Below, piece by piece: positions 14,262-63,226 of a stretch of 64,000 nt of DNA (the first letter of the stretch is position 1; each line of letters begins with the position of its first letter). Below the pieces are notes generated by a model. The model had not been told where the DNA came from. It saw only the letters and a list, made by a program, of their open reading frames with translations, and did not search any database. Where the stretch lies: positions 1-64,000 of the forward strand of contig JAQGDQ010002389.1 in assembly GCA_030141605.1 (NCBI GenBank). The letters run 5' to 3'. The position numbers were made by a program, and so were the translations under genes. Source of the DNA: Tubiluchus corallicola (lineage: Eukaryota > Animalia > Priapulida).

Positions 14262-15686
14262 CTACATGCTGCTGCTGGAAATGCTCGCTTTAGCAGCCTC
14301 ATAAACAGACTCTACAATTTGAGGAGTCGCTAAATCTTGCCCCCAAAAATACTCTTGAGACAAAAAGGCCTTAATACCTGCTTTTAAATCTCCCCGGGTT
14401 TGCTGTTTAATCTGTTTTATTTTTTCTAACACAGAATCACTGTCTCGAGCTGGAATAGCAGCAGAACTGGCATGTTGACCTGTATAAAATAAATACCATG
14501 CAGCAAGCGCCTTGCTCATAACAGGTGGTGGTGTCTTTTTATCTTCTAAATAAGCCATAAAACGAGGTAAATTACGAGCCCTGAACTTTGCAATAGAGTT
14601 CAAACTAATATCATACCATGCATGCTGAATATAAGGATTAGAAAAACGCTGAAGTACAGAATCGGCAAAAGCTTTCGCTTTGGCGCTATCCTGCGAAATA
14701 TAAGGTAAAACCTCATTGGTTAAAAAGGATTCCATTATATCTTGATAATATTTCTGCGTTAGAGTTTTATTGACATACTTTTCCCCTTTAATCAGTGCTA
14801 TAGGCGCTAATACCGTATGAGCTCCATTTAATATAGCAACCTTTTGCTCTTTATAGGATTTTAAATTATCCGTAACAACTACATTAAGCCCTGCTTCTAC
14901 AAAGGGTATGATAGGATCAGCACCGCCTTTCGTTTTTTCAACCACCAATGAATAAAAGAACTCTGTCGCCACAATAAAAGAATCTTCATACCCATTTTTA
15001 ATATTGATATCTTCTGCCAAAGCAGCTGGGTATCCCGGAACAATACGATCTACCAAGGTACCAAAAAACGTGTTTTTTGTTTCAACCCAGCTTGCGAAAT
15101 CCTCACATAAATTCCACTGTTTAGCATATCGCAATACATATTTTTTTAGTATTTGCGCATTATTATCAATTAATTCACAGGGGAAAATTTGAAATCCAAG
15201 AGCTTGCGTTTTGCCAGTATTATCAAAACGGTGCCAAAGTAGCTGTGTTAGCTTTGCAGGAAAACTGGCCGCAGGGGAATCAGATAATTGACAAGCCTCA
15301 TCATAGGCAATGCCCGCTTCTGTCGTATTGCTAAAAATAACCTGATAATCTGTATTAAGCGCTAAAGATAAAAAAGCATCAAACTGTTGATAAGGGGATA
15401 ATTCATCACAAACACATTCAATAACCTCTTGTTGATTGAATTCTTTCCCCTGTTCATCCAATCCCTGAACAAGAACCGTATATAAACCATCTTGATCCCG
15501 TAATGTTTTTTCTGCTGCCATATTAATAGGTCGCACAACGGTAACACCCCAGTCTCCATTTGTCTTTTTATTGACTTGCTGCACTTGCCAATCCATAAAT
15601 GCACGTAAAAAATTACCCTCACCAAACTGTATAATTCTTGGGGTATAGGATTTTGCCTTATAAACAGCCCGTGTTAATTGCCTCAT
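14262..15686 (-). CDS. uxaB: Tagaturonate reductase (altronate oxidoreductase)
   Basis: IIQFGEGNFLRAF, SNTTEAGI, SFPAKLT, PCELI, LVDRIVPGY, KVAILNGAHT, RFSNPYI. Confidence 0.93.
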   Translation of the reverse strand: MRQLTRAVYKAKSYTPRIIQFGEGNFLRAFMDWQVQQVNKKTNGDWGVTVVRPINMAAEKTLRDQDGLYTVLVQGLDEQGKEFNQQEVIECVCDELSPYQQFDAFLSLALNTDYQVIFSNTTEAGIAYDEACQLSDSPAASFPAKLTQLLWHRFDNTGKTQALGFQIFPCELIDNNAQILKKYVLRYAKQWNLCEDFASWVETKNTFFGTLVDRIVPGYPAALAEDINIKNGYEDSFIVATEFFYSLVVEKTKGGADPIIPFVEAGLNVVVTDNLKSYKEQKVAILNGAHTVLAPIALIKGEKYVNKTLTQKYYQDIMESFLTNEVLPYISQDSAKAKAFADSVLQRFSNPYIQHAWYDISLNSIAKFRARNLPRFMAYLEDKKTPPPVMSKALAAWYLFYTGQHASSAAIPARDSDSVLEKIKQIKQQTRGDLKAGIKAFLSQEYFWGQDLATPQIVESVYEAAKASISSSSM

Positions 15687-16128
15687 ATTTTTTACTCCTA
15701 CAATTAAATAACCTTTAAAAATTCATGAAAACACCCTACTGAATTATAAAACAGCCACATTAAATTTCTAAATATTGCTGCCATTAGAGTATAGAAATGT
15801 AATAAGGATACTGTTTTTATATTTCACAGTATTGAAATTTTAATTGCCAAACATTATATACCATAATAATTTAATTATAAAATAACTCAGGGCTATTACA
15901 ATAAAACAGTAGGCAGGAAATTAACGTATTATTGCCTTAAAGTAGCCTTTGTAAAAATAACATAATGAAAACATTGGAAGAAAGTTTAACAACTTGAACC
16001 CTAAAATAATTTGATATTGCTATTTTTTAAAATAGCGTCTAACTATAGTATAGTTAATTTATTAAGTTTATTCTACTAATCTGCCTAATAGATATTTAAT
16101 AATTCAAAAAAATTTAAGGTGAGTTCTG

Positions 16129-17136
16129 ATGAAACAGAGGGGAATTATGATAAAACATTTAAAATTTTTACTACTGTCTACAGTATGCCTGTCTATGGCA
16201 GCATTATCCGCATGTACTCAAAATGAGGAGCAAGAAGAAAAATACGTTATTAGAATCGCTTACGGTAATCAACCCGGTGAACCCACAGATTTAGGGGTGC
16301 ATGAATGGGCTCGACTAGCAAGAGAAAAATCAGATGGAAGAATTGAGCTGCAGCCATATCCTGCCTCTCAATTAGGTAGCCAAAAAGATATTACCGAGCA
16401 AGTCCGCATGGGCGCCAGCATTATTACTATTTCTGATGGCGGTTTTTTAATGGACTATTATGAAGATGTTGGTATTACCTATGGACCATACTTAACGGAA
16501 ACCTACGAAGAATATTTTAAATTAATGGATTCTCCATGGTTTGATTCTATTAGAAATGCCTTACGAGGAGAAAAATTTGAAGTTGTTACAGCTAAGTGGG
16601 TATATGGTACACGGCATCTTTTAACGAAGAAACCAGTCAACACTCCCGCTGACTTACAAGGGATGAAAATCAGAACCCCAAGTGCTACAACTTTAATCAA
16701 AACATTTGAGTTACTGGGAGCAACTCCATCTCCTATGCCATTAAGTGAAGTGTATCCTGCATTAATACAAGGAGTGATTGATGGCGTTGAAAACCCGTTG
16801 CCAGTACTTGCAGGAGCGAAACTTCATGAAGCTGCAAAATATCTGACAATGACTGGCCATATAAATAATGTATCGATTTGGATTGGTAGCGCTGATTATT
16901 TTGCCGATCTTCCAGCAGAAATTTCTGAAATTATCAAAGAAGCCGCTGAAGAAGCCGCTATGTTTACTTTCGGGTTAGTGCAAAAGAGTGATGAAGAAGC
17001 TCTGAATATAATGACAGAAGCCGGAGTCACTGTTCACACGCCGGATGTTAGTGCCTTTCGTGATCTCGCGATGCCAATTTATACCGAAATGTTTAAACCT
17101 AGCCTATATGAAACAACACAACAAAATACGAACTAA
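16129..17136 (+). CDS. dctP: TRAP transporter substrate-binding protein (DctP family), probable lipoprotein
   Basis: YPASQLG, DLQGMKIRT, EVYPALIQGVIDGVENP; N-terminal lipobox ALSAC. Confidence 0.9.
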   Translation: MKQRGIMIKHLKFLLLSTVCLSMAALSACTQNEEQEEKYVIRIAYGNQPGEPTDLGVHEWARLAREKSDGRIELQPYPASQLGSQKDITEQVRMGASIITISDGGFLMDYYEDVGITYGPYLTETYEEYFKLMDSPWFDSIRNALRGEKFEVVTAKWVYGTRHLLTKKPVNTPADLQGMKIRTPSATTLIKTFELLGATPSPMPLSEVYPALIQGVIDGVENPLPVLAGAKLHEAAKYLTMTGHINNVSIWIGSADYFADLPAEISEIIKEAAEEAAMFTFGLVQKSDEEALNIMTEAGVTVHTPDVSAFRDLAMPIYTEMFKPSLYETTQQNTN

Positions 17137-17147
17137 TCAATAACTTC

Positions 17148-17170
17148 AGGGTTGGCTATCAGCCAACCCT
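17148..17170 (+). promoter_or_regulatory. Intercistronic hairpin after dctP (mRNA stabiliser or partial terminator)
   Basis: Perfect 10-bp stem AGGGTTGGCT-atc-AGCCAACCCT. Confidence 0.6.
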
Positions 17171-17211
17171 ATTATTGTATAGCGCCCTATGACAAAGCTG
17201 AAAACTATCCC

Positions 17212-17685
17212 ATGATGAAACTGAAAAAAATAGCCTATAACATGGATGACATCGTTGCATGTATTGCTTTGCTGTCTTTAATAATTCTAACGATACTGGC
17301 TGTTATATTACGCTATGCTTTCAACAGCCCTATCCAATGGCAAGAAGAGATTTCCCTTCTTTTAGTTGTCTGGTTTGTTTTTATAGGAGCAAGTAGCACA
17401 ACAAAGCGTGAACTTCATATCTGTATTGACTCTTTAGTTTCTTATTTTCCTATAAGAATTCAACTTTTTTTAAGTTTATTTGTTTTGTTTTTTACAATTG
17501 CCGTATTGATAGTAGTTGCCTACTACGCAGGGCACCTTATGCTCAATACATCCCAATTAACAGATATTTTAAAAATACATTACTTTTTTATGTATTTACC
17601 GGTTTTGGGCGGAACACTGTTAATGATTTGCCACTCTACAGCCAATTTAATCAGCACGATTAAAACGATTATAGGTAAGGGTTAA
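17212..17685 (+). CDS. dctQ: TRAP transporter small permease
   Basis: VILRYAFNSPIQWQEEIS, HICIDSL; four TM segments. Start moved to ATG 17212, downstream of the hairpin. Confidence 0.88.
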   Translation: MMKLKKIAYNMDDIVACIALLSLIILTILAVILRYAFNSPIQWQEEISLLLVVWFVFIGASSTTKRELHICIDSLVSYFPIRIQLFLSLFVLFFTIAVLIVVAYYAGHLMLNTSQLTDILKIHYFFMYLPVLGGTLLMICHSTANLISTIKTIIGKG

Positions 17686-17687
17686 GT

Positions 17688-18968
17688 ATGTGGGCTTTAT
17701 TTTTTATCTTGTTAGTAACCCTTATTTTATTTAATGTACCTATTTTTATCGCATTGCTCGGAGTAGGGCTCATCTTTACTCTTAGCGTCCCAGATGCTTC
17801 TCTGTCTATCTTCGCACAACAATTTATTTCTGGTACACAAAGTATACCTTTATTAGCTATCCCATTTTTTATTATGGCCGGCGTGTTTATGAATTATACC
17901 GGCATTACACGAAGACTGATGGACTTCTGTTGCGCGGCTTGCTCTGGTATCCGTGGCGGATTAGCACAGGTAAATATTGTACTAAGTACTATGATGGGTG
18001 GGCTTTCCGGATCTAATATAGCCGACGCCGCTATGATGTCTAAAATATTAGTACCAGAGATGGAAAAAAATGGCTTTAATCGCCCATTTTCCTCGGCAGT
18101 TACAGCATCCAGCGCTTTGATTACCCCTATAATTCCTCCTGGAATTGCCTTAATTGTATATGGTTTTGTTGGTAATGTCTCTATAGGCAGACTTTTTATG
18201 GCTGGCATTATGCCTGGCCTGCTCTGCGCTGTCAGCTTAATGGTGCTTGCTGCTTATCTAGCTCCTAAAAATGGCTATATCCCTCCTGAAGAGTCCTTTA
18301 AAGCAAAAAAAGTATTATCATCTGCTGTGGATGCTTTTTTAGCGCTGCTGATGCCAGTAGTTATTATTGGTGGAATACGATTTGGCATATTTACACCAAC
18401 AGAAGCCGGAGCAATCGCAGTAGGATATGCTTTTTTCCTAGGTCTTATTGTCTATAGAGAAACAAGCTGGAAAGATATTAAAAAAGGGCTGATCGAAACC
18501 TTGGCAACAACAACATCCGTCGTTATTATTATTGCTGCTGCCGCTGCTTTTTCATGGATTTTAACATGGGAAAGAGTACCCCATACTATTGCAGAGCTTA
18601 TCCTTACCTGGATAGATAACCCTTTTTATTTTCTGCTGTTTATCAATGTTCTGTTATTACTTATCGGTATGTTTATAGAAGGCAATGCGGCTATGTTGGT
18701 ATTAGTTCCGATTTTAATGCCTATTGTACGGCAATTAGGGATTGATGAAGTCCATTTCGGCATCATTGTTGTGTTTAATATGGCTATTGGTACATTAACC
18801 CCTCCTATGGGCACAATTATATTTACGACCTGTTCTATTACAAAAACAGATACATTACAGTTTTTAAAAGCGATGATTCCTTTTTATGCATTGCTTTTTG
18901 GCCTGTTATTCTTAATTACATATATTCCTCAAATAAGCCTGTTTTTACCAAACTGGGCTTTTCAATAA
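17688..18968 (+). CDS. dctM: TRAP transporter large permease
   Basis: LLAIPFFIMAG, GGLSGSNIADAA, PIIPPGIALIVYG, FTPTEAG, TPPMG. Confidence 0.93.
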   Translation: MWALFFILLVTLILFNVPIFIALLGVGLIFTLSVPDASLSIFAQQFISGTQSIPLLAIPFFIMAGVFMNYTGITRRLMDFCCAACSGIRGGLAQVNIVLSTMMGGLSGSNIADAAMMSKILVPEMEKNGFNRPFSSAVTASSALITPIIPPGIALIVYGFVGNVSIGRLFMAGIMPGLLCAVSLMVLAAYLAPKNGYIPPEESFKAKKVLSSAVDAFLALLMPVVIIGGIRFGIFTPTEAGAIAVGYAFFLGLIVYRETSWKDIKKGLIETLATTTSVVIIIAAAAAFSWILTWERVPHTIAELILTWIDNPFYFLLFINVLLLLIGMFIEGNAAMLVLVPILMPIVRQLGIDEVHFGIIVVFNMAIGTLTPPMGTIIFTTCSITKTDTLQFLKAMIPFYALLFGLLFLITYIPQISLFLPNWAFQ

Positions 18969-18986
18969 TTAAATTAGGATGAAAAA

Positions 18987-20003
18987 ATGAAAGCATTAGT
19001 TTGCCATAAGCCCAATGATATATCTTATGTTGAAGTAGAAAAACCCACCCCACAAGCAGGAGAAATATTATTAAAAGTTGCAGCTGTCGGAATCTGTGGC
19101 ACAGATATCCACGCCTATTTAGGCAAACAACCCTTTTTTTCCTACCCTCGTATTTTAGGCCATGAGATCAGTGGCTCTATAGAAGCAGTAGGGCAAGGCG
19201 TTAAAAAACAAATTGGAAAAAAAGGAATTGTAATCCCTGCTATAGCCTGCGGCGCCTGCTCGGCTTGTCGTGTCGGAAAACCAAATTGTTGCGAATCGAT
19301 TTCTGTAATGGGGGTACATCAAGACGGTGGTTTCCAGGAATATATAACCGTGCCGGAAAAAAATATACTTATAGTACCGGATAATCTTTCCTTCTCTGCC
19401 TGTGCTCTGATTGAGCCTTTTGCAATCGCTGGCCACGCTGTGCGACGAGCAAATGTTGCGGCTACAGATAAAGTCCTTGTCGTCGGCGCTGGCGCCATTG
19501 GCATTGGTGTAGCAACTATTGTTAAATCCTTAGGAGCCGAAGTCATTGTAGCAGAAGTCTCTAAGGAGCGCCGAGAACATATAGAAACCCGTTGCCAAAT
19601 CTCTACATTAAATCCACTAGATGAGAAGTTTCAAGATATTTTAAAAAAAGCCTTTGACGGCGTTCTACCGAATATATTATTAGACGCTACAGGGAACAAG
19701 GATTCCATGTCAAACAGTGTTCATTATATTTCCCATGCGGGAAGAATTGTTTTTATTGGCTTATACCAAGGTAACTTAGAATTGGACGATCCTACATTTC
19801 ACAAAAAAGAAACGACCTTATTGGCATCCCGTAATGCCAATAAAGAAGACTTTCAACAGGTAATTGATATGTTTCAAACAGGAGCATTACAAGAAAAAAT
19901 GATGAAAAACCAAGAGTTTTCTTTTTCTACATTTGGAAACAGCTATCATAAAGATGTTGCAAGCAATCCCTGCCTTGTTAAAGGGGTCGTTTTGTTTGAT
20001 TAA
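18987..20003 (+). CDS. Zn-dependent dehydrogenase, L-galactonate 5-dehydrogenase (LgoD/YjjN)-like
   Basis: GICGTDIHAY.GKQPFFSYPRILGHE, CGACSACRVGKPNCC, GVHQDGG, FHKKETTLLASRNA; linked to uxaB. Confidence 0.75.
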   Translation: MKALVCHKPNDISYVEVEKPTPQAGEILLKVAAVGICGTDIHAYLGKQPFFSYPRILGHEISGSIEAVGQGVKKQIGKKGIVIPAIACGACSACRVGKPNCCESISVMGVHQDGGFQEYITVPEKNILIVPDNLSFSACALIEPFAIAGHAVRRANVAATDKVLVVGAGAIGIGVATIVKSLGAEVIVAEVSKERREHIETRCQISTLNPLDEKFQDILKKAFDGVLPNILLDATGNKDSMSNSVHYISHAGRIVFIGLYQGNLELDDPTFHKKETTLLASRNANKEDFQQVIDMFQTGALQEKMMKNQEFSFSTFGNSYHKDVASNPCLVKGVVLFD

Positions 20004-31308: not shown

Positions 31309-31337
31309 TTGACTTTGAAATAGAACTAAAGTAGAAC
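31309..31337 (+). promoter_or_regulatory. lexA promoter overlapped by an alphaproteobacterial SOS box
   Basis: TTGACT (31309-14), 17 bp, TAGAAC (31332-37); GAAC-TAAAGTA-GAAC at 31323-31337 matches GAAC-N7-GAAC. Confidence 0.8.
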
Positions 31338-31404
31338 ATGTGTATTATATATGTTGTATTTTTATGCGTGTTGGAATACAATCAATGAAATTAAAGGATT
31401 CATA

Positions 31405-32106
31405 ATGCAAGCGTTAACATATCAACAGCATAAGCTTTTGGTTTTTATTTGCCAGTATATTGATGAAAAAAGCATCTCTCCCTCTATGGAAGAAATGAAA
31501 GATCATCTTAAACTTGCTTCAAAATCGACTGTTTATAAATTATTACTCAGCCTTCAAGAAAAAAAATATATTCGTAGGGCTCCTCATAAAGCACGTGCTT
31601 TGGAAGTTCTGAAATATCCTCGTAACTTTAACAATACCTCTTACGCCTCCTCTCAGAAGGCGGTCCGCCCTTGTTCGGCCTCATCTTTTTTCTCTGCTGT
31701 TACAGGAGGCGTAAAGCAATGTATCTATCTTCCTTTATATGGAAAAATTCCCTACGAAACAACTGTGGAATCTTTTCGCAACCATACAACATTTATTGAA
31801 GTTCCAACCTCCATGCTTGACAAAGGAGAATATTACTCCTTTCAAATCGAAGGGAATTTTATGCAAGGCTTTGGCATTTTAGATAATGATATTTTGCTAA
31901 TTAACAAATCAAGAGACTCTAATAATGATGATCTTGTTTTGGCTTTAGTCAATGAAACACAAATTATGTTCAGAAAATACGAGAAGAAAGAAAATATGAT
32001 TTTTTTAAAGTCAGGAAACTCTCCTTTAGGCACACAGGAACTTGCCTTTAATAAAGAAAAGGTTAAGTTACAAGGTGTTTTAACAGGCTTAATCAGGCGC
32101 TATTGA
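31405..32106 (+). CDS. lexA: LexA-family repressor lacking autocleavage residues
   Basis: LTYQQHKLL, SPSMEEMKDHLKLASKS, KARALEV, LPLYGKI, QGVLTGLIRRY align to alphaproteobacterial LexA. Start ATG 31405 follows AAAGGA. Confidence 0.9.
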   Translation: MQALTYQQHKLLVFICQYIDEKSISPSMEEMKDHLKLASKSTVYKLLLSLQEKKYIRRAPHKARALEVLKYPRNFNNTSYASSQKAVRPCSASSFFSAVTGGVKQCIYLPLYGKIPYETTVESFRNHTTFIEVPTSMLDKGEYYSFQIEGNFMQGFGILDNDILLINKSRDSNNDDLVLALVNETQIMFRKYEKKENMIFLKSGNSPLGTQELAFNKEKVKLQGVLTGLIRRY

Positions 32107-32125: not shown

Positions 32126-32878
32126 ATGGAACAAACATGTTTTCGCCTTTTTATCGATAAAGACTCGTTTAGTGGGCAACAGTTAATGCTGATTCTATCT
32201 TGGCTTTTGTTAGATAAACTTCCTTATTTTCCTCTGCCAGAGCAAGAAAAATCGCGCTTTCAGCCTGTCCTTCTTACAGATGATCAGCAATCTTTTATCG
32301 GAATTGTACCAATTATCAACTATCTTAAGCGTCATAATCAACAAGTAAAAGAGCAGATTCAAGAATCAGAAAAAATAAGTGCGACATGGCAGCGGGAACG
32401 CGCGAACTCCCTTATTAATGAATCAAGGCACTATTATGAAACAATTGCTTTCATTTCAGCAGAGTTTATCTTCTGGCCAATTATGAGAAAAGAAAGAAAA
32501 ATAGCCTATAAAGAAGCTGGATTTAAAAATATTGACCAAACAATGCCAGCAGAAAATCTCACGACTATTAAACGAAGTGTAGAAGAAATAAAAAACAGGT
32601 TAAGGATTCTAGACGAGTTTTTATCAACACAATGCTGGCTAAACGGAAACCAAATTGGCCTTGCAGACTTTATCTGGGCGCCATTTTTTCATCGGTTGAA
32701 ATTGGCAGGATGGCCCCAGAAAGAAGAAGGATATATTGAAATATGGCAATGGTACCAGCAAATAGAAAAAATGGAAATATTTCAACAGATCTATTGTAAA
32801 GAAAATATTTCTTTCAAAAGTCGTTTAATTCTTTCTAAAACCCTTCAGATACTCTCTGGAAAAACACTAAAAATTTAA
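32126..32878 (+). CDS. Glutathione S-transferase-like protein (clear C-terminal domain, divergent N-terminus)
   Basis: IINYL, LRILDEFLS..WLNGNQIGLADFIWAPFFHRL, IWQWYQQI. Confidence 0.65.
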   Translation: MEQTCFRLFIDKDSFSGQQLMLILSWLLLDKLPYFPLPEQEKSRFQPVLLTDDQQSFIGIVPIINYLKRHNQQVKEQIQESEKISATWQRERANSLINESRHYYETIAFISAEFIFWPIMRKERKIAYKEAGFKNIDQTMPAENLTTIKRSVEEIKNRLRILDEFLSTQCWLNGNQIGLADFIWAPFFHRLKLAGWPQKEEGYIEIWQWYQQIEKMEIFQQIYCKENISFKSRLILSKTLQILSGKTLKI

Positions 32879-35918: not shown

Positions 35919-36248
35919 TTACAAAGGCTGCTTTTTACGCTCATAGCGCTTGTAAATCCTCTTTTGGTAACGATGATAGATAAAAATTGATAGTATGGTC
36001 TGTATAAAAAACCAAAAAACAAAAAAAATCCCCATTAAACGCTTTTTTTCCGCTCTAGGCTCGATAGAAGCCCTCTGAGACCAGACAGAATATTTGATCA
36101 CTTCCTCGGAAACAGCTGGCTTAAGCTCTTCTGTTATCTCAACATAAGAGGGAACAAAATCATCTTCCTGTGCATACGCTTCTGAAAAGAAACTTACGAT
36201 AAAAAAAGATAAACTTAGCACTATAACAATATTTTTTTTCATTCGCAT
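35919..36248 (-). CDS. Miniature haem-less cytochrome c1 derivative (signal peptide plus C-terminal anchor only)
   Basis: Third gene of the pet operon, ATG 1 nt after the petB stop with GAGGA RBS. Signal peptide ends ..EAYA. C-terminal W..EPRAEKKRLMG-TM-KRIY resembles c1 WAAEPxLExRKxMG-TM-KRxW. No CXXCH and no Cys. Confidence 0.7.
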   Translation of the reverse strand: MRMKKNIVIVLSLSFFIVSFFSEAYAQEDDFVPSYVEITEELKPAVSEEVIKYSVWSQRASIEPRAEKKRLMGIFFVFWFFIQTILSIFIYHRYQKRIYKRYERKKQPL

Positions 36249-36249
36249 A

Positions 36250-37458
36250 TCAGGATTTCCTCTTCTTACGTAAAAGAGCAACCGTAAGGGAAGGGGGAAT
36301 AGAGGCTTTTTTCTCAAGTGGCGTTATCCAATAAACAAGAATGAAAAAACTGAAATATCCCAAAAGCGCGATCCGCGTCAGCCATATCCATATATCAGCT
36401 TGCGGCATTGCTCCACAGATGAAAATTGTTAGGAAACAGACTAAAAAAAATCGAAGGAGCGCTTTGTAAGCAGGGCGAAAAATCGCACTATTATTAGGAG
36501 AATGATCAAGCCACGGCATAAAAAATAAAATCCCAACCATTGCTACGCATAAAATAAGAGCAAAAAATGGAGAAGGAACAGCACGAATAACAGAAAAAAA
36601 GCTCCAAAAATACCACTGAGGGCGAGCTGATAGAAAAGGAGAAAGAGGGTTAGACTCTGCGATAAAGCTGTCAGATAAAGATAAAATATCGCCAGAAAAC
36701 CAGAAAATCAGCCCCATAAGAATTGTCAGATATAAATTGATCGCGCAAAAGTCACGCACCGCAAACCATGGATAAAAAGGAACGTGATCCTGAGTAGGGA
36801 GTGTAATTCCTAAAGGATTATTAATACCTGCTTTGTGAACTGCAATAACATGAATAATAGTAATGATAATGATCAGAAAAGAGAAAAAAAGATGAAAGCT
36901 ATACATTCTCGCTAAAATTGCCTCATGAGGAACAGAGCCTCCCAAAACAAAAGAGGCAAGCGCTTCACCAATAAAAGGAACAGATGACAGTAAATGATAC
37001 AAGACAGTGGCTGCCGCGACCCCATTATGACTCCAAGAGAGAATTGATCCGAAAAAAGACGCCATAAATAAACAACAAAGAAGGAGCAAACCCGTAATCC
37101 AGACAATTTCTCGCGGCGCTTTATAACTGCCATAATAAAAAGCTTTGAAAAGGTGTAAGCCTAATATTATGAATAATAAAGAAGGAACAGTCTTGTGAAT
37201 TGCGAGAATAAACCATCCCCAAGAAATAGTTTCCTTGAAATCTAAAAGCGTTTGAAACGCATAATCCACATATGGAACATAATATAAAGAAAGTGAAAAC
37301 CCACTCAGAAAAAGAAAAAAGAGCGACAAAGAAGCTAATGCGCCTGTTGTCCATAACCAGTTAAGATTACGAGGCATACGGTGTTTCTTGAAATAGTTGA
37401 ATAATGGCTTTAAAGGAAAACGTTTTTCCAACCAATAAAAAAATAAAAAATATCTCAT
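36250..37458 (-). CDS. petB: Cytochrome b of a bc1-type complex (divergent Qo site)
   Basis: PRNLN, two H-x13-H haem pairs, YYGSYKAPRE, NNPLGI, PQWY, PWLD, FRP. Confidence 0.93.
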   Translation of the reverse strand: MRYFLFFYWLEKRFPLKPLFNYFKKHRMPRNLNWLWTTGALASLSLFFLFLSGFSLSLYYVPYVDYAFQTLLDFKETISWGWFILAIHKTVPSLLFIILGLHLFKAFYYGSYKAPREIVWITGLLLLCCLFMASFFGSILSWSHNGVAAATVLYHLLSSVPFIGEALASFVLGGSVPHEAILARMYSFHLFFSFLIIIITIIHVIAVHKAGINNPLGITLPTQDHVPFYPWFAVRDFCAINLYLTILMGLIFWFSGDILSLSDSFIAESNPLSPFLSARPQWYFWSFFSVIRAVPSPFFALILCVAMVGILFFMPWLDHSPNNSAIFRPAYKALLRFFLVCFLTIFICGAMPQADIWIWLTRIALLGYFSFFILVYWITPLEKKASIPPSLTVALLRKKRKS

Positions 37459-37480
37459 CCGTATTGATTCACATTCATTT

Positions 37481-38044
37481 CTATGAGCTTTCCTCTGTTA
37501 TACGAATTGTGCTTTCATTCAGAAAATGCCAGGGAAGCGTATCTAAATCCCGCCTTGCTGGCCCTTTAGTCACTTTGCCATATTTGTCAAAATAAGAACC
37601 ATGACACCCACAAGACCAGCCTGACCACTCCCCTCCATGCACACGATTATACTCAACATGTAATGGACAGCCTAAATGCGTACAAAGCCCAATCACAAGC
37701 TGCCATTCTGAAGTATCCTCGCCATGACGAATAATATAAACAGGCTTGTTACGCCATTGTATAACTTTCCGATCACCAGACGCTATATCGGAAATATCAA
37801 TATCAATAAAAGCAGGAGAAGAAAATTCCAAAGCCGCTTTATTAACAACAGAAGAAGGAAATAAACTTCTTAAAAAAGGCCAGCTTAATAAAATAACACT
37901 TAAACTGCTCATAATCTGAATTGTTTTTTTTAACACATCTCGCCGAGCCGCCAGATTATCATTCGCAGGAGTTATAAATAATTTGTTAAAAAGCCTTCTT
38001 GTACGAGATAAAGAAGACGGTTTGTTATGGCGAAAAGTACTCAT
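37481..38044 (-). CDS. petA: Rieske iron-sulfur subunit of a bc1-type complex
   Basis: Tat-like RRDVL plus TM; WRNKPVYI; CTHLGC and CGCHGS boxes; GPA. Confidence 0.92.
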   Translation of the reverse strand: MSTFRHNKPSSLSRTRRLFNKLFITPANDNLAARRDVLKKTIQIMSSLSVILLSWPFLRSLFPSSVVNKAALEFSSPAFIDIDISDIASGDRKVIQWRNKPVYIIRHGEDTSEWQLVIGLCTHLGCPLHVEYNRVHGGEWSGWSCGCHGSYFDKYGKVTKGPARRDLDTLPWHFLNESTIRITEESS

Positions 38045-48874: not shown

Positions 48875-49484
48875 CCTTACAGAAAAATATAATAGGCTTT
48901 TATAATCCTGCCACAAATAAGCTATGGCATTTTAAAAAGATTAATATTCCAAAGAGTAGGGTGCTCTTAATTCTCATTTTTCTCATGCGCACTAATGAGA
49001 GAGCTGCTATAGGGTAAAAACATTTTCTGTAAACTGTTGAAGAGAATTCTGACAGCAAAAATATTGTCTGCCATTGTTTATTGCTGCTTAACCGAAAAAT
49101 GGCTGGTGAAAACAAACAGCCAGATAGTGTATAGATTCTTCGAAAAAATTAAGGCTGTGGATTGTGATCGTTTAGAGATTCAAAATAATATTAATTTACA
49201 GCATTAAAATCCATCTCATATAGTTAAAAAATAAAATAATAATTTATTCTTAATTATTTGCAATTTATGTATTATTTATAATTTAACATAATATAAATTA
49301 TGCGACAATTTTCAAGCTATAAAAGAGCGAACAATAAAGTATGTATATTGAAGCGTTATCGCTATAGAATTAAAATAATAACAAACTTCAAGAGTGTTAT
49401 GTCACCTATTACCATCCAAAATACTTTTTTGACGAAACTTCTATAAACCCTCTCTTGTAATACTTTCTTTATTACCAGCCTATA

Positions 49485-49720
49485 TTTGATATAGCTATAT
49501 AAATCCTTTTCACTTGGATATATTTTCTCTAATAGGATTACTAGCTGGTGATAGTAATAGAAAATATAGCAAGATATCCTCTGCCTTTCTGAACAAACTT
49601 GTCCTTCTTTTCTCTTGTAGAAATATGGCATTGCTTATGAAGATGAACATATTTTAGCCAGCCTAGATAACAAGCCTTCCACTTCTTATATCAAAAAATA
49701 TCCGCATTGATAGTGCTATA
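49485..49720 (-). pseudogene. Possible highly decayed IS630-family transposase fragment
   Basis: Broken frames read TINADIF..W and ISNAIF..LLYFLLLSPASNPIRENISK*KGFI, resembling MDNAxFH..LLFLPPYSPDLNPIExxWxxLK. Confidence 0.3.
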
Positions 49721-49721
49721 T

Positions 49722-50155
49722 GAAGCTGGTTTGGTATATATGGCATCTTTCAGAAATTTTAAACAATCCTGAAGTAATGGGTTGGATTTTAGAGAGTTTG
49801 GTTAAGCTTTACCAGTATGGATATGATGCACGGAGGAAAATGTTCTTATTCCTATGCAGACGGATGGAAAGGATCTTACAGGTCAGATTTTTCAGTGGGA
49901 TGAATATTATGGGAAGAAAGGAAGAAAGTTCCAAAGATCAACTTTATTATTGGACCATGCTATTCCCTATGATCGCGGGTATTCATTGACAAATGGTATA
50001 CGTCTATGATGTGTGCTCCGGAAGATTCCTAAGTGATTTGGCATGGGAAATATTGGTGTTAATCCATATGCTGTTCATTATTTAAATATGAAAACCATAC
50101 TTGATGATCCTAAGGCTATTTTTCTATTGATCGATATTTTTCATGCTACAAAACA
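49722..50155 (+). pseudogene. Decayed inverted partial copy of the PL2 pectate lyase gene
   Basis: With two frameshifts and two TGA stops it reads GLVYM/HLSEILNNPEVM..QYGYDA/EENVLIPMQTDGKDLTGQ..LLLDHAIPY..DDPKAIFLLIDIFHATK, matching about 54727-55157 on the minus strand. Confidence 0.93.
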
Positions 50156-51918
50156 AGCTGACAGCGAGTAAAATATTTCCGACTACAAGTGGATATTGAT
50201 GCTATTTGTGCCATTTTTATTCTTACACGCCGTGAGAACATACTTTAATTTGTGTATAACTACATATGCGCTATATCATTAGAAAAGCCCATAAATAATA
50301 AGACATTCCCTATCTTCATACAATCTAATTAGAGTCCGACAACACACCCTTTTCGTATTGCTGTAGAATTTTTGTTGTAGGAGCGTAAACTCCCAAATAG
50401 CGAGCATACACCAATATGATCATGAACATAAAAAGCTAACGGCTAGCATATCAAGTCTTAGTTATCCTCTTATTGGGCGTTTTCTTATGTTTTTGGCTTT
50501 TATAAGCCAGTATGCAGTCATGCTATCATAACATTATCCCCTCTATCCTAATATTAAAGTGAGCTTCATTCCTCTTGATCATTGTAATACTTTGTTTCTT
50601 ATGAACGGGAAAGAGTTTAGAGCCATAAATCTGATGAGCAGACAATCCTTGAATATAATCAATTTATAGCGTATTGGCCGTATTTACGTCTCTTTCCAAG
50701 CAGCCGCAGAAGTAGCATTAAAGTTCGTTAGGAAAATTATATTACTGTAAAAAGAATTATAGAAAGTAAATATATTTAAAAAACATAAATATAACCAACG
50801 TCTTATTTGCCTTCTAAAGGATTCAACAGACTTTTTTCAATACATAAAGCATCTTCAGAAACATGCATATTCCTGCGGTTTTCGGCAGTGAGTTAACTTT
50901 CTTCAGGTCAGAAGCAGAAACGCCTATTAAAAATAGAGCGAATGCTTACGGATTTTGGAAGGGGTAATTATATGGTTTATAATATATGTGCGCTTTCTAA
51001 GATTCAGTTGCATTAAGTTATTGGGAATCCATGTTTTTGGAAGAATTTATTTTGCCGTTACCCATGAGGATATAGATGGAATTTACACAGGAAGTGATGA
51101 TGTAGATACTATGGTATTGATTGTTTTGATAAGTTCACAGACGGAAACAACGAGTATTTCTATTGGCCAGGTAGCTGATAATAGCGATTTTATTGCATCT
51201 GGAGAGGGATTTATGCTTCCTTCCTTAATTCCTTCTTAAAATATTATTCACCTTGATAGCGTGATCTTAAAATACTGACATTATTAATGCCACTTGCCTC
51301 TATCATAAAGATCTAAGAGCGTTAAAGCCATAATAGATAAAAGATATGAAAATTGCATTAAAAATCCCCTACTCCTGCCTCTTTTTCCTTTTAAGGCAAA
51401 AGAATTCATTGAAGTGAAAAACGGGCCTTTGTTCTTAAGGAATATTTTATTTTCTGAAAGAGGGTCTTTGGAAAAAGAGAGAAGATATAAAGATAGGAAC
51501 GATACAAAAAGAATTGGCATGTTTATACATATATAACAACACAATAAACCATTATATATAATGCAATATATTAATATCGTTCTTTTTTTAAAAACAACGC
51601 GATAAAGTTGGTTGTTTTCTACATAAAACATCACAAAAATAACTATATAACAAATGGATATAAATATTTATCAATGTAAAACATTAATAAATTAAAAAAC
51701 ATCTCATTAAACAACATATGAATAGCATTTTTCTTCAATATTTTTCCATTACTTCAATCACGTATAAATCAATATAAAAATATCTTGGAAATAGAGCTAT
51801 AACTTACCTTCTTATTTAAATGTCTCTACAGGCATCTTTTAGCTACCACACTCATCCCCTCTCCTTTTTCTTCTTTGTTCCTTGGCTTGTTTCGATTTTA
51901 TTCATGCTTGAGGCATGA

Positions 51919-51935
51919 TTGGCATCCTTTTTGCT
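51919..51935 (+). promoter_or_regulatory. Sigma54-type -24/-12 promoter
   Basis: TTGGCATCCTTTTTGCT has exact GG-N10-GC spacing, 47 nt upstream of ATG 51983. Confidence 0.6.
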
Positions 51936-51982
51936 CCTATAAAAACAACTCACAAACATAATTAAGCAAAAGGATCATAAAT

Positions 51983-52630
51983 ATGAAACAGGGCGTTATA
52001 AAAAAAATCTCTTTTATCACACTTTTATCTTTATTGATTTCTTTTTTACAAATTACACAATCCTATGCCGCAAAAGAAAATAATGGCTTTATTTTCAATA
52101 CAGAGGCTAAAAATTTACCAAAAGAAATAAACTTCCCTAAATGGGATTATGCTTTTGAAACCTCTATGAAAAAACTTGCAGACAAAACAGAAGAAAAAAC
52201 ATTTAAAAAATGGAAAGAATTTATTGAAACAGCCCAAACATACCAACGGCATAAACAGTTAATGGCTGTAAACGCATATGTTAACAAACTGAAATATGTT
52301 AAAGATATCAATAACTGGGGAAAAAAAGATTATTGGGCTTCTATAGACGAAACACTGAAAAAAAATAGTGGAGATTGCGAAGATTACGCCATTTTAAAAT
52401 ATATGACATTAAAAGCCTTAGGATGGGATATGAAAAATATAACACTGCTTGTCGTTAGAAATACAAAAGGAAAAAACTTTATACACGCCGTTTTAGCTAT
52501 TCACTCTCCACAAGACAATAAAACATATATCATGGATAACAGATATTCTTATGTTTATCATGATAAAAAAGTTAGCAGTTATGAGCCTCTCTACGCTATT
52601 AATGAAAATAATTTATGGTACTATAATTAA
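51983..52630 (+). CDS. Periplasmic transglutaminase-like cysteine peptidase (BTLCP / peptidase C93, LapG-like)
   Basis: Signal peptide; VNAYVN, D..NWGKKDYWAS, GDCEDYAILKY, HAVL, YIMDN (Cys-His-Asp triad). Confidence 0.92.
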   Translation: MKQGVIKKISFITLLSLLISFLQITQSYAAKENNGFIFNTEAKNLPKEINFPKWDYAFETSMKKLADKTEEKTFKKWKEFIETAQTYQRHKQLMAVNAYVNKLKYVKDINNWGKKDYWASIDETLKKNSGDCEDYAILKYMTLKALGWDMKNITLLVVRNTKGKNFIHAVLAIHSPQDNKTYIMDNRYSYVYHDKKVSSYEPLYAINENNLWYYN

Positions 52631-53317
52631 GGTAATTATACGCGCTTGGCAACACTTCAATAATCTAACATACTAAGCTCTACAAGGATAACAGAGGTGT
52701 TTTAGATATTAAAAAATTTGATAACTTAGTAGAATTTCAGAAAGAATTTTCAACTGAATTAAAATATATTAAGCATTTAATAAAATTATGTTGGCAATAT
52801 AAAGTAAACTGCCTTCATTGTGGAAGAGTTGAAAAAATATGAAAATTAAAATCACCTACTATGTTTAAGTGTGGCACTTGTAACCGCCAGTTTTCTGTAA
52901 GAGTTAGCACTATCTTTGAAGGGGATTCTGCTTTACCTTTACAAAAATGGTTTTTAGCTTAAATAAATCACAAGAAAGAACGACTTGGTAAAGACTTGGG
53001 AGTAAGACAAGCTACGGCTTGATTTATGTAGCAACTCATTAGATACGCCCTTACTTATAATGCTATAGAAAAAACGATTAAAGAATATAGAATGGTGAAA
53101 CTCGCACAAATATACCATTGAAGGTGCATTTCTCTTATTTTAAAAGATATCTAAATGGTACACACTACCAAATAAGTCAAAAGCACTCAGGGGAATATAT
53201 ATAAACTCTTTTATATACAAGTATAACAATAGAGAAAGCACTAATTGTGCTATGTTTAATGAATCTATGAATTTGGTGTTTGGTAAAAGATTAGAGTATA
53301 AAAAGTTAGTTAGCTAA
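52631..53317 (+). mobile_element. IS1595-family (ISXO2-like) element remnant, internally deleted and multiply disrupted
   Basis: Reads CLHCG..FKCGTCNRQFSVRVSTIFE..LPLQKWFLA*..LGKDLGVRQATA*FM, then TN/TIEGAF../KR..YNNR..GKRLEYKKL. Candidate left end GGTAATTAT at 52631. Confidence 0.88.
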
Positions 53318-54061
53318 CCCGATATATTCAACAACTTCATACTGGCTAATAGATTGATTGGGATTGTAATGTACATTTACAGAACATATATGAAGCTTAT
53401 CTTTAAAAAAAGTATTTTCTAAGTTAAATTGATTTATTATTCCATCTGCAAAAATTACTTTTTTGCTTTTATTTTCTATACTTTGTATAATCCCTTTATA
53501 TGTTTTAGCCTCTCCTTTAGAAACTGTTTCTAAGCTTAATTCTACGCTCTTATATAATTCACATTCTTTTTTTAAAGCAGATGATACGTTTTTTAAAGCA
53601 AATACGCTATCGTGTATTTGCTTTGTTGTATCTTTATCTAATGAATATTTTATATCCTCTTTACCTGGTGCTTGTATATAAAAATTAATTTGGTTAACAG
53701 TATTAAAATCTTCTGTAACATTATGTAATGTGTTTACTTGATTTTTAGCTTCTTTATCTTTTTCTTTAAACTTACTTAATACGCTATCCATATTATTTTC
53801 AGCATGTTTTAGAGTATTTATAACATACTTGCCAAACTCATAAACACCGTGACTAACTATACCAGTTATAATTGGAACCATAACATATTGTGAAAATTCA
53901 AAAATTACAGAGCCATCTTTTACACTTTGTATACTAAGAGATGAATTTTTATTAGTAAATCTCGCATACTCCTTTTTTAAGCCAGTAAGATAATTAGTAA
54001 AATCAGATAAAGACAAGCCTTCTTTTCTATCATAATCAATACGAATCTGTAACTTTTCCAC
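53306..54061 (-). CDS. Hypothetical 251-aa protein, candidate IS passenger gene
   Basis: Intact GTG-start ORF, very AT-rich, convergent with and overlapping the transposase remnant stop. Confidence 0.75.
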   Translation of the reverse strand: MEKLQIRIDYDRKEGLSLSDFTNYLTGLKKEYARFTNKNSSLSIQSVKDGSVIFEFSQYVMVPIITGIVSHGVYEFGKYVINTLKHAENNMDSVLSKFKEKDKEAKNQVNTLHNVTEDFNTVNQINFYIQAPGKEDIKYSLDKDTTKQIHDSVFALKNVSSALKKECELYKSVELSLETVSKGEAKTYKGIIQSIENKSKKVIFADGIINQFNLENTFFKDKLHICSVNVHYNPNQSISQYEVVEYIGLAN

Positions 54062-54281
54062 TCTACAAAACCAATTGCTAAAGTATTAATCGTTATATAA
54101 TATACTCTAGTTTATATTAGTGAATTATAATAATAGCTAGATATATTTATAGCTCTATACAGCTTTTAGATTCCCAAAAGTATCCTACTGTAGTTGAATG
54201 ACCATAAAATAAATAGCTAAGAGCTATTTTGAAGCTTAACTGTAATATTATCAAATAAAGCAGAGTAGCAATCTTACCATT

Positions 54282-54383
54282 GAAATACTTGCTTGTACTT
54301 TTTCAACGGCTTGTGCCATCTTTCGTCCAGGTAACGATATAAGTGCCGAAATACTTGCTTGTACTTTTTCAACGGCTTATGCC
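54282..54383. repeat. Two 36-bp direct repeats separated by 30 bp
   Basis: GAAATACTTGCTTGTACTTTTTCAACGGCTT(G/A)TGCC at 54282-54317 and 54348-54383; one mismatch. Confidence 0.9.
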
Positions 54384-54388
54384 CCGTT

Positions 54389-54426
54389 TAAAATAAAGCG
54401 CTGTATTTTAAAGAAAATACAGCGCT
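54389..54426 (-). terminator. Intrinsic terminator of the pectin operon
   Basis: Perfect 13-bp stem AGCGCTGTATTTT-aaag-AAAATACAGCGCT (54397-54426), followed on the minus strand by TTATTTT; 23 nt after the PL2 stop. Confidence 0.8.
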
Positions 54427-54449: not shown

Positions 54450-56156
54450 TTAACGTGTTACACGATAAAAAATATTTCTATCATATGTTGTTTTTACACT
54501 TCCGTCTTCAAAAAGATACTCTCCGTGAATATAAGCACTATCAGATAAATAAAGTGGAATATCTTTCATCTCCTCTAATGCCGCAATAAGAGAAACTAAA
54601 GCAAACGCCTCTATAGAGGCAAATCTTGTATAAATATGATCAGAAGACTCTATAAAATACCCTTTTATATAACGATTCTTTAAAATATTTTCAGCAATAC
54701 GAAGTCCTAAATTCAAGTAAGCTTTTCGCTTTGTCGCATGAAAAATATCAATCAATAGAAAAATAGCTTTAGGATCATCAACTGTGGTTTGCATATTTAA
54801 ATAATGAACACCATGTGGATTAGCACCAATATCTCCCATCTCAAATCCCTTAACCATCTGTCGCAGCACACGCCATAGACGTATGTCCTTGGCTAATAAA
54901 TACCCACGAGCATAGGGAATAGCATGATCCAACAATAAAGTCGATCGTTTGAATTCTCTTCCTTTCTTCCCATAATATCCATCCCGCTGAAAAACTTGTC
55001 CCGTAAGATCCTTGCCATCCGTCCACATAGGAATAAGAGTATTTTCCTCAGCATCATATCCATATTGAGCAAACTTGACTAAACCCTCCAAAGCCCAATT
55101 CATCACCTCGGGATTGTTTAAAGCTTTTGAAAGATGCATATACACTAAACCAGACTCAGATAAAATAGTCTTCTGGTTTCTAAATAAAACGTTCCCCTCA
55201 TAGGCAACAGAACCAAACTCAGGTCCAAACTGCCGCTGCGCACGATCACCATACTTGGAGCTTGTATCCTTATCATTCTTAGGAGGCCAATCACGGCGCC
55301 TCGGAGAAGAATATTGATACACAGGAAGACCTGTCTCAGGATGGCGTGCCATAACATATTGTTTCGCTAAATGATGCCCCCAGGCTGCCGCTTGCTCATC
55401 CCTTGTGTATTTATAAAGCATACTTGCTGCGTAAATCAAATCGCTCCCAGCATTAATAAATGTCAATCCCTTTGTCTCTGCCATCTTAGGAAGAGAGTTC
55501 TGAACAACATCCACTTTTATAGCCTTGAAAATATCATCATTATAAACCTTGCTGTAAGAGCCATGGCGATTCATATCAAGCGTCTTCCAATCATCAACAT
55601 GCGCATTCCAAAGCGCTTTTAAAAGTCTAACTGTCTTGTCAGACTCAATCTGGTAGAAAAAATCATAATAAGGAAAATGGTTCTTTAATTCATGAACCAT
55701 ATTCTTATCATCTGGCCCTTCAAGCTCTAACGTATCTAAATTAATAAAACGATGTCCCCCCCAATACAAAAGACCATTCTCATCCTGATAATGATCAAAC
55801 ATATATTGAGTGATTTCTTTCGCTTTCTGCTCGTATAGATCCTTCCCTGTAATCCGTGATAAAATAACCAGCGTTTTCAAAAGCGTCTGCTGATTCGCAA
55901 AATTAGTGATCACAGCTTCACGACCATCTTCAAAACGCCATTTGACAAGCTCTCCCGTATCAATATTAATTCCATCCGCAAGCAAAGGAGAAGGCATGAC
56001 TGAACTATAACCATTTTTGAAAATTGTCTCCATAGCCTGCTCAACAGTTTGCACAATTTTTATTTCCCTTTCTGTAGCAAACCCTTGTGACCATCCCACA
56101 ATAAAAAACATACCGAAACAAAATAATAAGCCTTTTCCTGATTTTCTAAAGAACAT
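54450..56156 (-). CDS. Polysaccharide lyase family 2 pectate lyase (PelW-like) with signal peptide
   Basis: PLLADG, NFANQQ, YWGGHRF, VHELKNH, WNAHV, ETKGLTFINAG, GDRAQRQFGPEF. Confidence 0.92.
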   Translation of the reverse strand: MFFRKSGKGLLFCFGMFFIVGWSQGFATEREIKIVQTVEQAMETIFKNGYSSVMPSPLLADGINIDTGELVKWRFEDGREAVITNFANQQTLLKTLVILSRITGKDLYEQKAKEITQYMFDHYQDENGLLYWGGHRFINLDTLELEGPDDKNMVHELKNHFPYYDFFYQIESDKTVRLLKALWNAHVDDWKTLDMNRHGSYSKVYNDDIFKAIKVDVVQNSLPKMAETKGLTFINAGSDLIYAASMLYKYTRDEQAAAWGHHLAKQYVMARHPETGLPVYQYSSPRRRDWPPKNDKDTSSKYGDRAQRQFGPEFGSVAYEGNVLFRNQKTILSESGLVYMHLSKALNNPEVMNWALEGLVKFAQYGYDAEENTLIPMWTDGKDLTGQVFQRDGYYGKKGREFKRSTLLLDHAIPYARGYLLAKDIRLWRVLRQMVKGFEMGDIGANPHGVHYLNMQTTVDDPKAIFLLIDIFHATKRKAYLNLGLRIAENILKNRYIKGYFIESSDHIYTRFASIEAFALVSLIAALEEMKDIPLYLSDSAYIHGEYLFEDGSVKTTYDRNIFYRVTR

Positions 56157-56167
56157 TTTTCCAATCC

Positions 56168-57289
56168 TTACGTTAACTTCTCCTGACCTGTATTTAAATT
56201 TCGCAAAATTTCCGCATAAGCCATCATGAAAATACCCACCCCTTTTCCGTCATTCTGAACAATAGGCTCTGAAATATAATAATCAAAAGAACCATCACGG
56301 TACGGATAAGTATCATCTATTCTCCCTAAACCAGCCATAACACATATATTTTCCAGCTGCTCATCCTTTAAAAACAGATCAACAACACTGTTAAAACTTT
56401 CCTGACCATACGAAAAATAAACCTCCGGCAAGTAACCAAGGCGCACTCCCTTCATTAAAGTATAGGAAAACATCAAAGAAGATGAGACTTCTATATAATT
56501 CCCTTCACGAGACTTCTGATCTATAACCTGATACCATAATTGCGTCTTATCATCCTGAAACGATAAAATGGACTTCATCGCCTCTCGCAACAAAAGCTCA
56601 AGATAACGATAATCTTCAAAAACCGTTTCTGACATAGCTTCCAAAATGTCAACCAGAGACATAACATACCATCCCATCGCACGCCCCCAAAAACATGGCG
56701 ATACACCCGTTTTAGGGTGAGCCCACCTCTTAAGCCGAGCTTCATCATAACCATGGTAATAAAGACCACTCTTCTCATCACGCATGAAAGAGTTAACATT
56801 ACGAATTTGACCAGTAATATCATAATAATGCCTCTTTCCAGTCCATAACGTATCATAACGCATGTAAAAAGGCTGCCCCATATACAAACCATCCAACCAA
56901 ACCTGATGAGGATAGGATTTTTTATGCCAGAAATTTCCAGACTGTGTACGAGGATGAGATTGAAGCTGGCTATAAAGTGTATCAAGAGCAATCTTAAACT
57001 TCTTTAGAGGATTTTCTTGATAAAGCGATACCAATGTATAACCAGGCTGAATATTATCAATATTAAAATCATCAAGCTTATAAGTCGGAATATCCCCGTT
57101 TGAACGAATCAGCTGATCAAAATAATGAAAAACAAAATCATAAAATTGCCGTTCCTTTGTAATCGTGTAAATATCAAAACTTCCCTTTAAAACACACCCA
57201 TCCTCATAACACCATTGACCATCCTTATAAAAAGAATAATTTTGAATATAGGCGTTGATAAAATCAGCTGATTTCTGAATTCTGCCCAT
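56168..57289 (-). CDS. GH105 unsaturated (rhamno)galacturonyl hydrolase (YteR-like)
   Basis: WCYEDG, NIDNI, FWHKK.YP.QVWLDGLYM, FWGRAMGWY, ND.KGVG. Confidence 0.92.
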   Translation of the reverse strand: MGRIQKSADFINAYIQNYSFYKDGQWCYEDGCVLKGSFDIYTITKERQFYDFVFHYFDQLIRSNGDIPTYKLDDFNIDNIQPGYTLVSLYQENPLKKFKIALDTLYSQLQSHPRTQSGNFWHKKSYPHQVWLDGLYMGQPFYMRYDTLWTGKRHYYDITGQIRNVNSFMRDEKSGLYYHGYDEARLKRWAHPKTGVSPCFWGRAMGWYVMSLVDILEAMSETVFEDYRYLELLLREAMKSILSFQDDKTQLWYQVIDQKSREGNYIEVSSSLMFSYTLMKGVRLGYLPEVYFSYGQESFNSVVDLFLKDEQLENICVMAGLGRIDDTYPYRDGSFDYYISEPIVQNDGKGVGIFMMAYAEILRNLNTGQEKLT

Positions 57290-58865: not shown

Positions 58866-58896
58866 ACCAAAGAATAGTTATTATATGCGCTAGATC

Positions 58897-60189: not shown

Positions 60190-60211
60190 GAGTAATTCCT
60201 CCCATAGAATC

Positions 60212-61348: not shown

Positions 61349-61377
61349 AATATTCTCCTTTATTAGTAGCTTTAAAA

Positions 61378-62289: not shown

Positions 62290-62292
62290 ATC

Positions 62293-63174: not shown

Positions 63175-63226
63175 CTTTATACCTCCCTTTAATTTATGAC
63201 TCGTTTATAGCGCCAACTCTACTTCT

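Follow-up and report, generated by a model that had tools for sequence, protein, structure and literature searches.

The locus described here raises the question of whether a LexA protein that should be unable to cleave itself is still a working repressor, and if so, of which genes. It lies within a stretch of 64 kb that was analyzed over its whole length, hereafter referred to as the window. The gene itself comprises the following features:

31405..32106, forward strand: lexA, 233 aa, no stop or frameshift (ORF reading, domain matches, structure model)
31394..31398, forward strand: Shine-Dalgarno-like AAGGA ahead of the ATG at 31405 (sequence)
31405..31620, forward strand: winged-helix DNA-binding domain (alignment, conserved positions)

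The ORF at 31405-32106 encodes an alphaproteobacterial LexA. It contains the domains LexA_DNA_bind (residues 1-65; PF01726, E 3.7e-14) and Peptidase_S24 (residues 119-226; PF00717, E 7.2e-15), and scores 112.1 bits against the lexA equivalog TIGR00498, just over the cutoff of 110.95. As the first-pass annotation had stated, the ORF is full length, with a frame that runs unbroken through all 233 aa from the ATG at 31405. In the predicted structure both LexA domains are present (mean pLDDT 77.6, with low values in the linker, residues 74-103), the best fold matches are all LexA structures, and the C-terminal domain superimposes on that of 1jhe with an rmsd of 2.6 Å; as modeled, the two-domain LexA fold is kept. 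The protein was aligned with 154 homologues, consisting of 120 database homologues and 34 genome loci, the closest of which are about 41-42% identical to it in either set.

Four features bear on self-cleavage:

31753..31758, forward strand: lost scissile bond, Tyr117-Glu118 in place of Ala-Gly (alignment)
31858..31860, forward strand: lost nucleophile, Phe152 in place of Ser (alignment, second run)
31951..31962, forward strand: eroded acidic patch facing RecA, NETQ, with one acidic residue (homologue comparison)
31972..31974, forward strand: lost general base, Arg190 in place of Lys (alignment, second run)

All three self-cleavage elements had been reported as gone, their motifs reading GKIPYE, GNFM and IMFRK. 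These motifs are all present, and the positions concerned are invariant elsewhere: in 154 of 154 homologues the Ala84 and Gly85 positions hold Ala and Gly (Tyr117 and Glu118 in the window LexA), the Ser119 position holds Ser (Phe152) and the Lys156 position holds Lys (Arg190). The Glu152 position, beside the strand of the Lys, is Glu in 152 of 154 homologues and Gln186 in the window LexA, and Lys191 lies one residue out of register with the catalytic Lys position. Alignment to solved LexA chains puts the same residues at the scissile and catalytic positions. Structural glycines and core residues are kept in the window LexA, even though the catalytic and scissile residues are all changed. Given the established biochemistry of LexA and the loss of Ala-Gly, Ser and Lys, neither RecA*-triggered nor alkaline cleavage would be expected; that the protein is non-cleavable, as had been claimed, follows from the replaced residues. 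Sequencing error was rejected as an explanation for Phe152, Arg190 and the SOS box, because they are reproduced with 0 substitutions in a second run of that sample (its coverage excludes Tyr117-Glu118) and many separate errors would be needed.

The acidic patch that contacts RecA is described in PMC9926225 as D150, D151 and E152. Two to four acidic residues are present there in the canonical homologues that matched the pattern (106 of 120), and the window LexA carries one. The RecA pocket (F111/L113/V153) stays hydrophobic in the window LexA, as Tyr144, Phe146 and Ile187.

The region upstream of lexA and the gene that follows it contain these features:

31309..31314, forward strand: -35 hexamer TTGACT of the lexA promoter (sequence; TTGAC in relatives)
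31323..31337, forward strand: SOS box 1, GAACTAAAGTAGAAC, a perfect GAAC-N7-GAAC (position, score, relatives)
31342..31356, forward strand: possible remnant of a reverse-facing SOS box 2, GTATTATATATGTTG (3 of 8 half-site bases off GTTC-N7-GTTC)
32126..32878, forward strand: glutathione S-transferase-fold gene (begins 19 nt past the lexA stop)

According to PMC8565304, the alphaproteobacterial SOS box is a GTTC-N7-GTTC direct repeat. In the window such a box lies over the promoter of lexA itself, with box 1 perfect and box 2 decayed. The first-pass annotation had noted a perfect GAAC-N7-GAAC overlapping the -10, and it is indeed found at 31323-31337, the ancestral position in a lexA promoter. 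Its right half overlaps the -10 predicted with the alphaproteobacterial consensus, 17 nt after the -35 hexamer, and its left GAAC is in the promoter spacer. A sigma-70 promoter scan missed this promoter, because its rule requires a T that is missing from the alphaproteobacterial -10.

A search for other GAAC-N7-GAAC sites, which had been proposed as a check, gave no further perfect one within the 64-kb window. As 1.08 are expected by chance, the count is at chance level and the evidence is the position of the box. Of 34 relatives, 31 carry this box ahead of lexA, 29 of them with TTGAC within 16 nt before it, and the identical 15-mer precedes intact lexA genes at two loci, L035 and L117. Box 1 scores 24.2 bits, and the next-best site in the window 10.1. 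Since the right half doubles as part of the -10, the left GAAC alone counts as independent evidence; it lies outside both promoter hexamers, and its probability at a fixed place is 0.0035, given the local base composition. A reverse-facing box 2 within 30 nt is found in 28 of the 31 boxed relatives, and the same pattern fails in the window, where the second box, to judge from its half-sites, has decayed.

The GST-fold gene is likely co-transcribed with lexA, and it is therefore likely under the box as well. Its relatives in genomes G088 and G253 have no box and do not adjoin lexA. FzlA was rejected as an identity for this gene, being unsupported (25 bits against a cutoff of 300).

For the DNA-binding domain the picture is mixed. 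The winged HTH had been described as kept, and this holds in part: L4, T5, Q8, S39, K40, S41, A63 and the wing residue R64 are all present. It does not hold for the recognition helix, where G42T, H44Y and R45K turn SKSGIHRL into SKSTVYKL, nor for the domain as a whole, so that, as read from the alignment, its conservation was overstated. Of the positions conserved in at least 90% of the homologues, the DNA-binding domain retains 26 of 35 and the C-terminal domain 25 of 45 (a difference that is not significant, p = 0.10), against 166 of 183 in the neighboring TsaD; both LexA domains have therefore drifted. Some of the helix changes also occur in other family members: Tyr is present at position 44 in 12 of 154 homologues, among them the intact LexA of L117, whose box is identical to that of the window, and the intact LexA of L114, which has a box, carries Ser at position 42. 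The comparison makes it plausible that the window LexA binds box 1.

The drift also fits a gene that is slowly decaying under weak or no selection, with a product that binds DNA poorly and a promoter and box that survive because they drive the GST-fold gene. Such decay would account for a DNA-binding domain well below the genome background with an altered recognition helix, for the decay of box 2, and for a first-position GC of 0.42 in lexA, compared with 0.51-0.61 in six of eight further genes of the window for which it was determined. It would also agree with the erosion of petABC in the same window, in a lineage that keeps other eroded-but-open genes. Against it, the GAAC in the spacer belongs to neither promoter hexamer, and no stop or frameshift has entered the 702 nt of the lexA frame despite 44% change at conserved C-terminal sites. 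A true pseudogene nearby, a fragment near 49716-50155 that copies the gene at 54450-56156 with 82.6% DNA identity, is broken three times in 436 nt, by one frameshift and two stops. The source gene of this fragment is pectate-lyase-like by ORF reading. In a neutral simulation (substitution-only, AT-biased rates set by hand, 500 runs), the frame stayed free of stops in 0.8% of the runs at 44% amino-acid change and in 6% at 26%. The unbroken lexA frame next to a broken pseudogene and the rarity of stop-free simulations favor selection, possibly weak, and parallel genes in other genomes are under purifying selection (see below). Slow decay is in our view unlikely.

The first-pass annotation had proposed that the gene is kept by selection, and the unbroken frame, the kept fold and box, and the purifying selection on parallel genes agree with this. 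Retention by selection of a full-length lexA with lost cleavage elements is thus supported, with the direct dN/dS values coming from the parallel genes, since the window lexA has no close relative from which its own ratio could be estimated.

Among 401 sampled alphaproteobacterial genomes, the nearest by SdhA are G088 and G253 (73%); the best identity for TsaD is 61%, and of 134 pattern matches in a metagenome scan none was confirmed as a relative. A three-gene tree of 31 rows places the window with G088, G253, G164 and G062 (SH-aLRT 92), and the window, G088 and G253 have in common an eroded petABC adjoining rplM and a GST-fold gene. In G088 and G253 LexA is intact and its gene boxed, and recA has a one-mismatch box. 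Because LexA is intact in these two genomes, the cleavage function was probably lost on the window's own branch.

The eroded petABC of the window (35919-38044, reverse strand) has open but divergent cytochrome b and Rieske genes, and neither a CxxCH motif nor a Pfam match was found in the 132-aa ORF at the cytochrome c1 position. Next to rplM in G088 and G253, c1 is shortened (about 200 aa, CxxCH kept) and the first Rieske ligand motif reads CQNLGC. An apparent pectin/uronate use cluster occupies 54450-64000 (reverse strand) and 14262-20003; its genes, named by ORF reading, are lyase-, hydrolase-, polygalacturonase- and altronate dehydrogenase-like, with ABC and TRAP transporters, and in an alphaproteobacterium the cluster was possibly acquired. 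The region 48900-54400 is low in GC (28-32%) and has few ORFs, and a transglutaminase-like cysteine proteinase gene is present at 51983-52630. To judge from the low GC and the genes for pectin use, the organism may be host-associated.

The gene order around lexA differs between genomes: it follows tsaD in the window, trpC in G088 and G253, and moeA in most relatives. The shift away from the usual trpC/moeA site could mean that the window gene is a diverged second copy and that an intact lexA elsewhere in the genome binds the box. This is very improbable, because a search at 80% DNA similarity in the contigs from runs containing the sequence gave no second copy and the parallel genomes each carry one full-length lexA.

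The lexA gene of the window had been presented as a one-off, and here the result is different, since the loss recurs in other small-genome Alphaproteobacteria. From 326 LexA-matching genomes we picked 46 for low scores and small size, a biased sample; with G088 and G253 added to the 40 full-length proteins from this pick, 42 full-length LexA proteins were read. Ala-Gly is lost in five of them (G164, G019, G070, G367 and G240). G164 has lost all three cleavage elements and kept a perfect box, and the LexA of G019 reads GNFM, as does that of the window. The LexA of G230 was rejected as uncleavable: G230 and its family of seven carry Ala-Gly and Ser, and six of the seven show the Lys motif. Within the order of G070, 16 of the 18 genomes encode a single LexA domain; of these 16 genes, three are intact, 11 are full length without Ala-Gly (eight of them also without Ser) and two are truncated. 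No second full-length lexA was found in the five uncleavable-LexA genomes, several of which are incomplete assemblies.

The parallel uncleavable genes are under purifying selection. By the Nei-Gojobori method, applied to six uncleavable pairs with high dS throughout and with one truncated member (L237), dN/dS was 0.006-0.074 for the DNA-binding domain (three pairs with estimable dS, the rest being saturated) and 0.044-0.137 for the C-terminal domain (four pairs, the rest again saturated). A profile search of 1.84 billion representatives gave, among the best 150 hits, 95 intact proteins, 38 altered at one or more elements and 17 partial ones; the profile was built from 14 uncleavable proteins and favors altered ones, some of which may reflect misalignment or errors in the sequences. 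The uncleavable trait needs four changes on the species tree, two of them forced by strong branches, and five, none so forced, on a LexA tree without the trait columns. Repeated loss of LexA cleavage is therefore likely, and a single origin remains compatible with the LexA tree. A grouping of the uncleavable proteins in the first LexA tree was rejected as long-branch attraction, because it fell apart when the trait columns were left out.

Other features of the parallel genes vary. No perfect box was found upstream of the lexA genes of G019, or of either the uncleavable or the three intact genes of G070's order, which means that autoregulation is not general. In this order, several uncleavable lexA genes start right after dnaB, leaving no room for a promoter, and the uncleavable proteins among L227-L241 share a new C-terminal motif (NKYM/LMPQ-like), absent from the three intact genes, that might serve a new function. 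G019, which has an uncleavable full-length LexA, also encodes a second LexA DNA-binding domain of 82 aa without a peptidase domain (L243, G019:C1:804516-804716). In G164, GTTC-N7-GTTC boxes lie directly behind the stops of paralogous membrane-protein genes of a tandem family (L153 and L154).

One suggestion had been that the uncleavable LexA locks the SOS regulon, still sitting on recA and repair genes and keeping them permanently low. The perfect box of lexA and the boxed recA of the nearest genomes, G088 and G253, are in line with this. The parallel genomes argue otherwise: recA is full length in all five uncleavable-LexA genomes tested, three of which come from one clade, and in none of the five does a box with at most one mismatch lie within 130 nt before it (G070 has a one-mismatch site at -192). 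By comparison, recA has a box in four of six checked intact-LexA genomes (G088, G253, G402 and, weakly, G035) and none in G230 and G343. Among the perfect boxes of G164, G019 and G070, 20 were picked by hand, and none of these precedes a repair gene recognizable by ORF reading; no other site in the 64-kb window, which has no typical SOS gene, scores like a box. That all five genomes keep recA with no box near its promoter speaks against a locked SOS regulon, of which we think the chances are slim, and in favor of a repressor no longer tied to DNA damage. As a cause of the LexA change, loss of recA was rejected, since none of the five parallel genomes shows it. For the window organism itself, the contigs of runs X1 and X2 that match the recA-alaS locus come from several organisms among the matches listed, none assignable by depth.

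We favor, with a probability of roughly 0.6, a reading in which the window LexA dimerizes, binds box 1 and represses its own gene constantly with no input from DNA damage, recA and the repair genes having probably been released. The organism would then have a LexA whose residues for self-cleavage have been replaced but which likely still dimerizes and binds its box, and which would therefore keep repressing when DNA is damaged. Binding to box 1 would exert negative feedback and hold lexA and the GST-fold gene at a steady level, a feedback that the decay of box 2 would loosen. As in the parallel lineages, recA and other repair genes would probably have dropped out of the regulon, so that SOS induction would have been abandoned rather than locked shut. 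Among the observations that weigh against this reading are the low conservation of the DNA-binding domain relative to TsaD, with three changes in the recognition helix; the overlap of half of box 1 with the -10, in a promoter that may be kept for the downstream gene; and the two truncated genes among the 16 of G070's order. More tentatively, and at slightly less than even odds, small-genome Alphaproteobacteria may repeatedly have made LexA into a transcription factor blind to damage, with the protease site lost, recA released from the regulon and the full-length repressor kept by strong selection in a new role; the window gene with its ancestral operator would represent an intermediate stage.

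The repeated appearance of this state under selection in small-genome Alphaproteobacteria is a more valuable result than a single gene, for which Synechocystis LexA is a precedent. In the usual account, reduced bacteria lose SOS control through loss of lexA, as in the Rickettsiae, where lexA is absent according to PMC8565304. Genomes with an uncleavable LexA would have taken another route, in which the repressor is kept and the switch dropped. Intact and uncleavable lexA genes coexist inside one order and, if the protein still binds DNA, they offer natural material for studying how a global regulon comes apart and its regulator is put to another use. Several uncleavable relatives carry the source annotation ‘repressor LexA’; with this label, and with the window protein passing the lexA equivalog cutoff, SOS inducibility is over-called in annotation. 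A literature search found no report of a naturally uncleavable chromosomal LexA in Alphaproteobacteria in its coverage, outside which lie most subscription journals and supplements.

With the canonical alphaproteobacterial LexA (TIGR00498), the window LexA shares the two-domain architecture, the SKS helix start, the HxARAL wing, the promoter layout and box 1. It differs in the absence of Ala-Gly, Ser and Lys, the eroded acidic patch, the decayed box 2, the move away from trpC/moeA and a best identity of about 42%. GIL01 gp6 is reportedly a phage mini-LexA without the peptidase domain; such proteins resemble the window LexA as a LexA DNA-binding head incapable of self-cleavage, but they are short, whereas the window LexA is full length and chromosomal, lies among housekeeping genes and has a whole C-terminal domain. 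The engineered non-cleavable LexA proteins of E. coli (S119A, G85D and K156A; PDB 1jhh, 1jhf and 1jhe) are changed at the same positions and have matching folds; they carry single changes made in the laboratory, the rest of the protein and its regulon being intact, whereas the window LexA has many natural ones. The natural precedent is LexA of Synechocystis sp. PCC 6803 (Sll1626; PMC1524924, PMC3091678 and PMC7567884), a regulator that works outside the SOS response and for which control by phosphorylation has been suggested. It too is a full-length chromosomal LexA without the Ala-Gly bond and the catalytic Ser, on a long branch in the LexA tree. It belongs to a different phylum, recognizes a different motif and has known targets, and it lost two of the three elements, whereas the window LexA lost all three; according to PMC1524924 its gene has no SOS-like box upstream, whereas the window lexA keeps the ancestral one.
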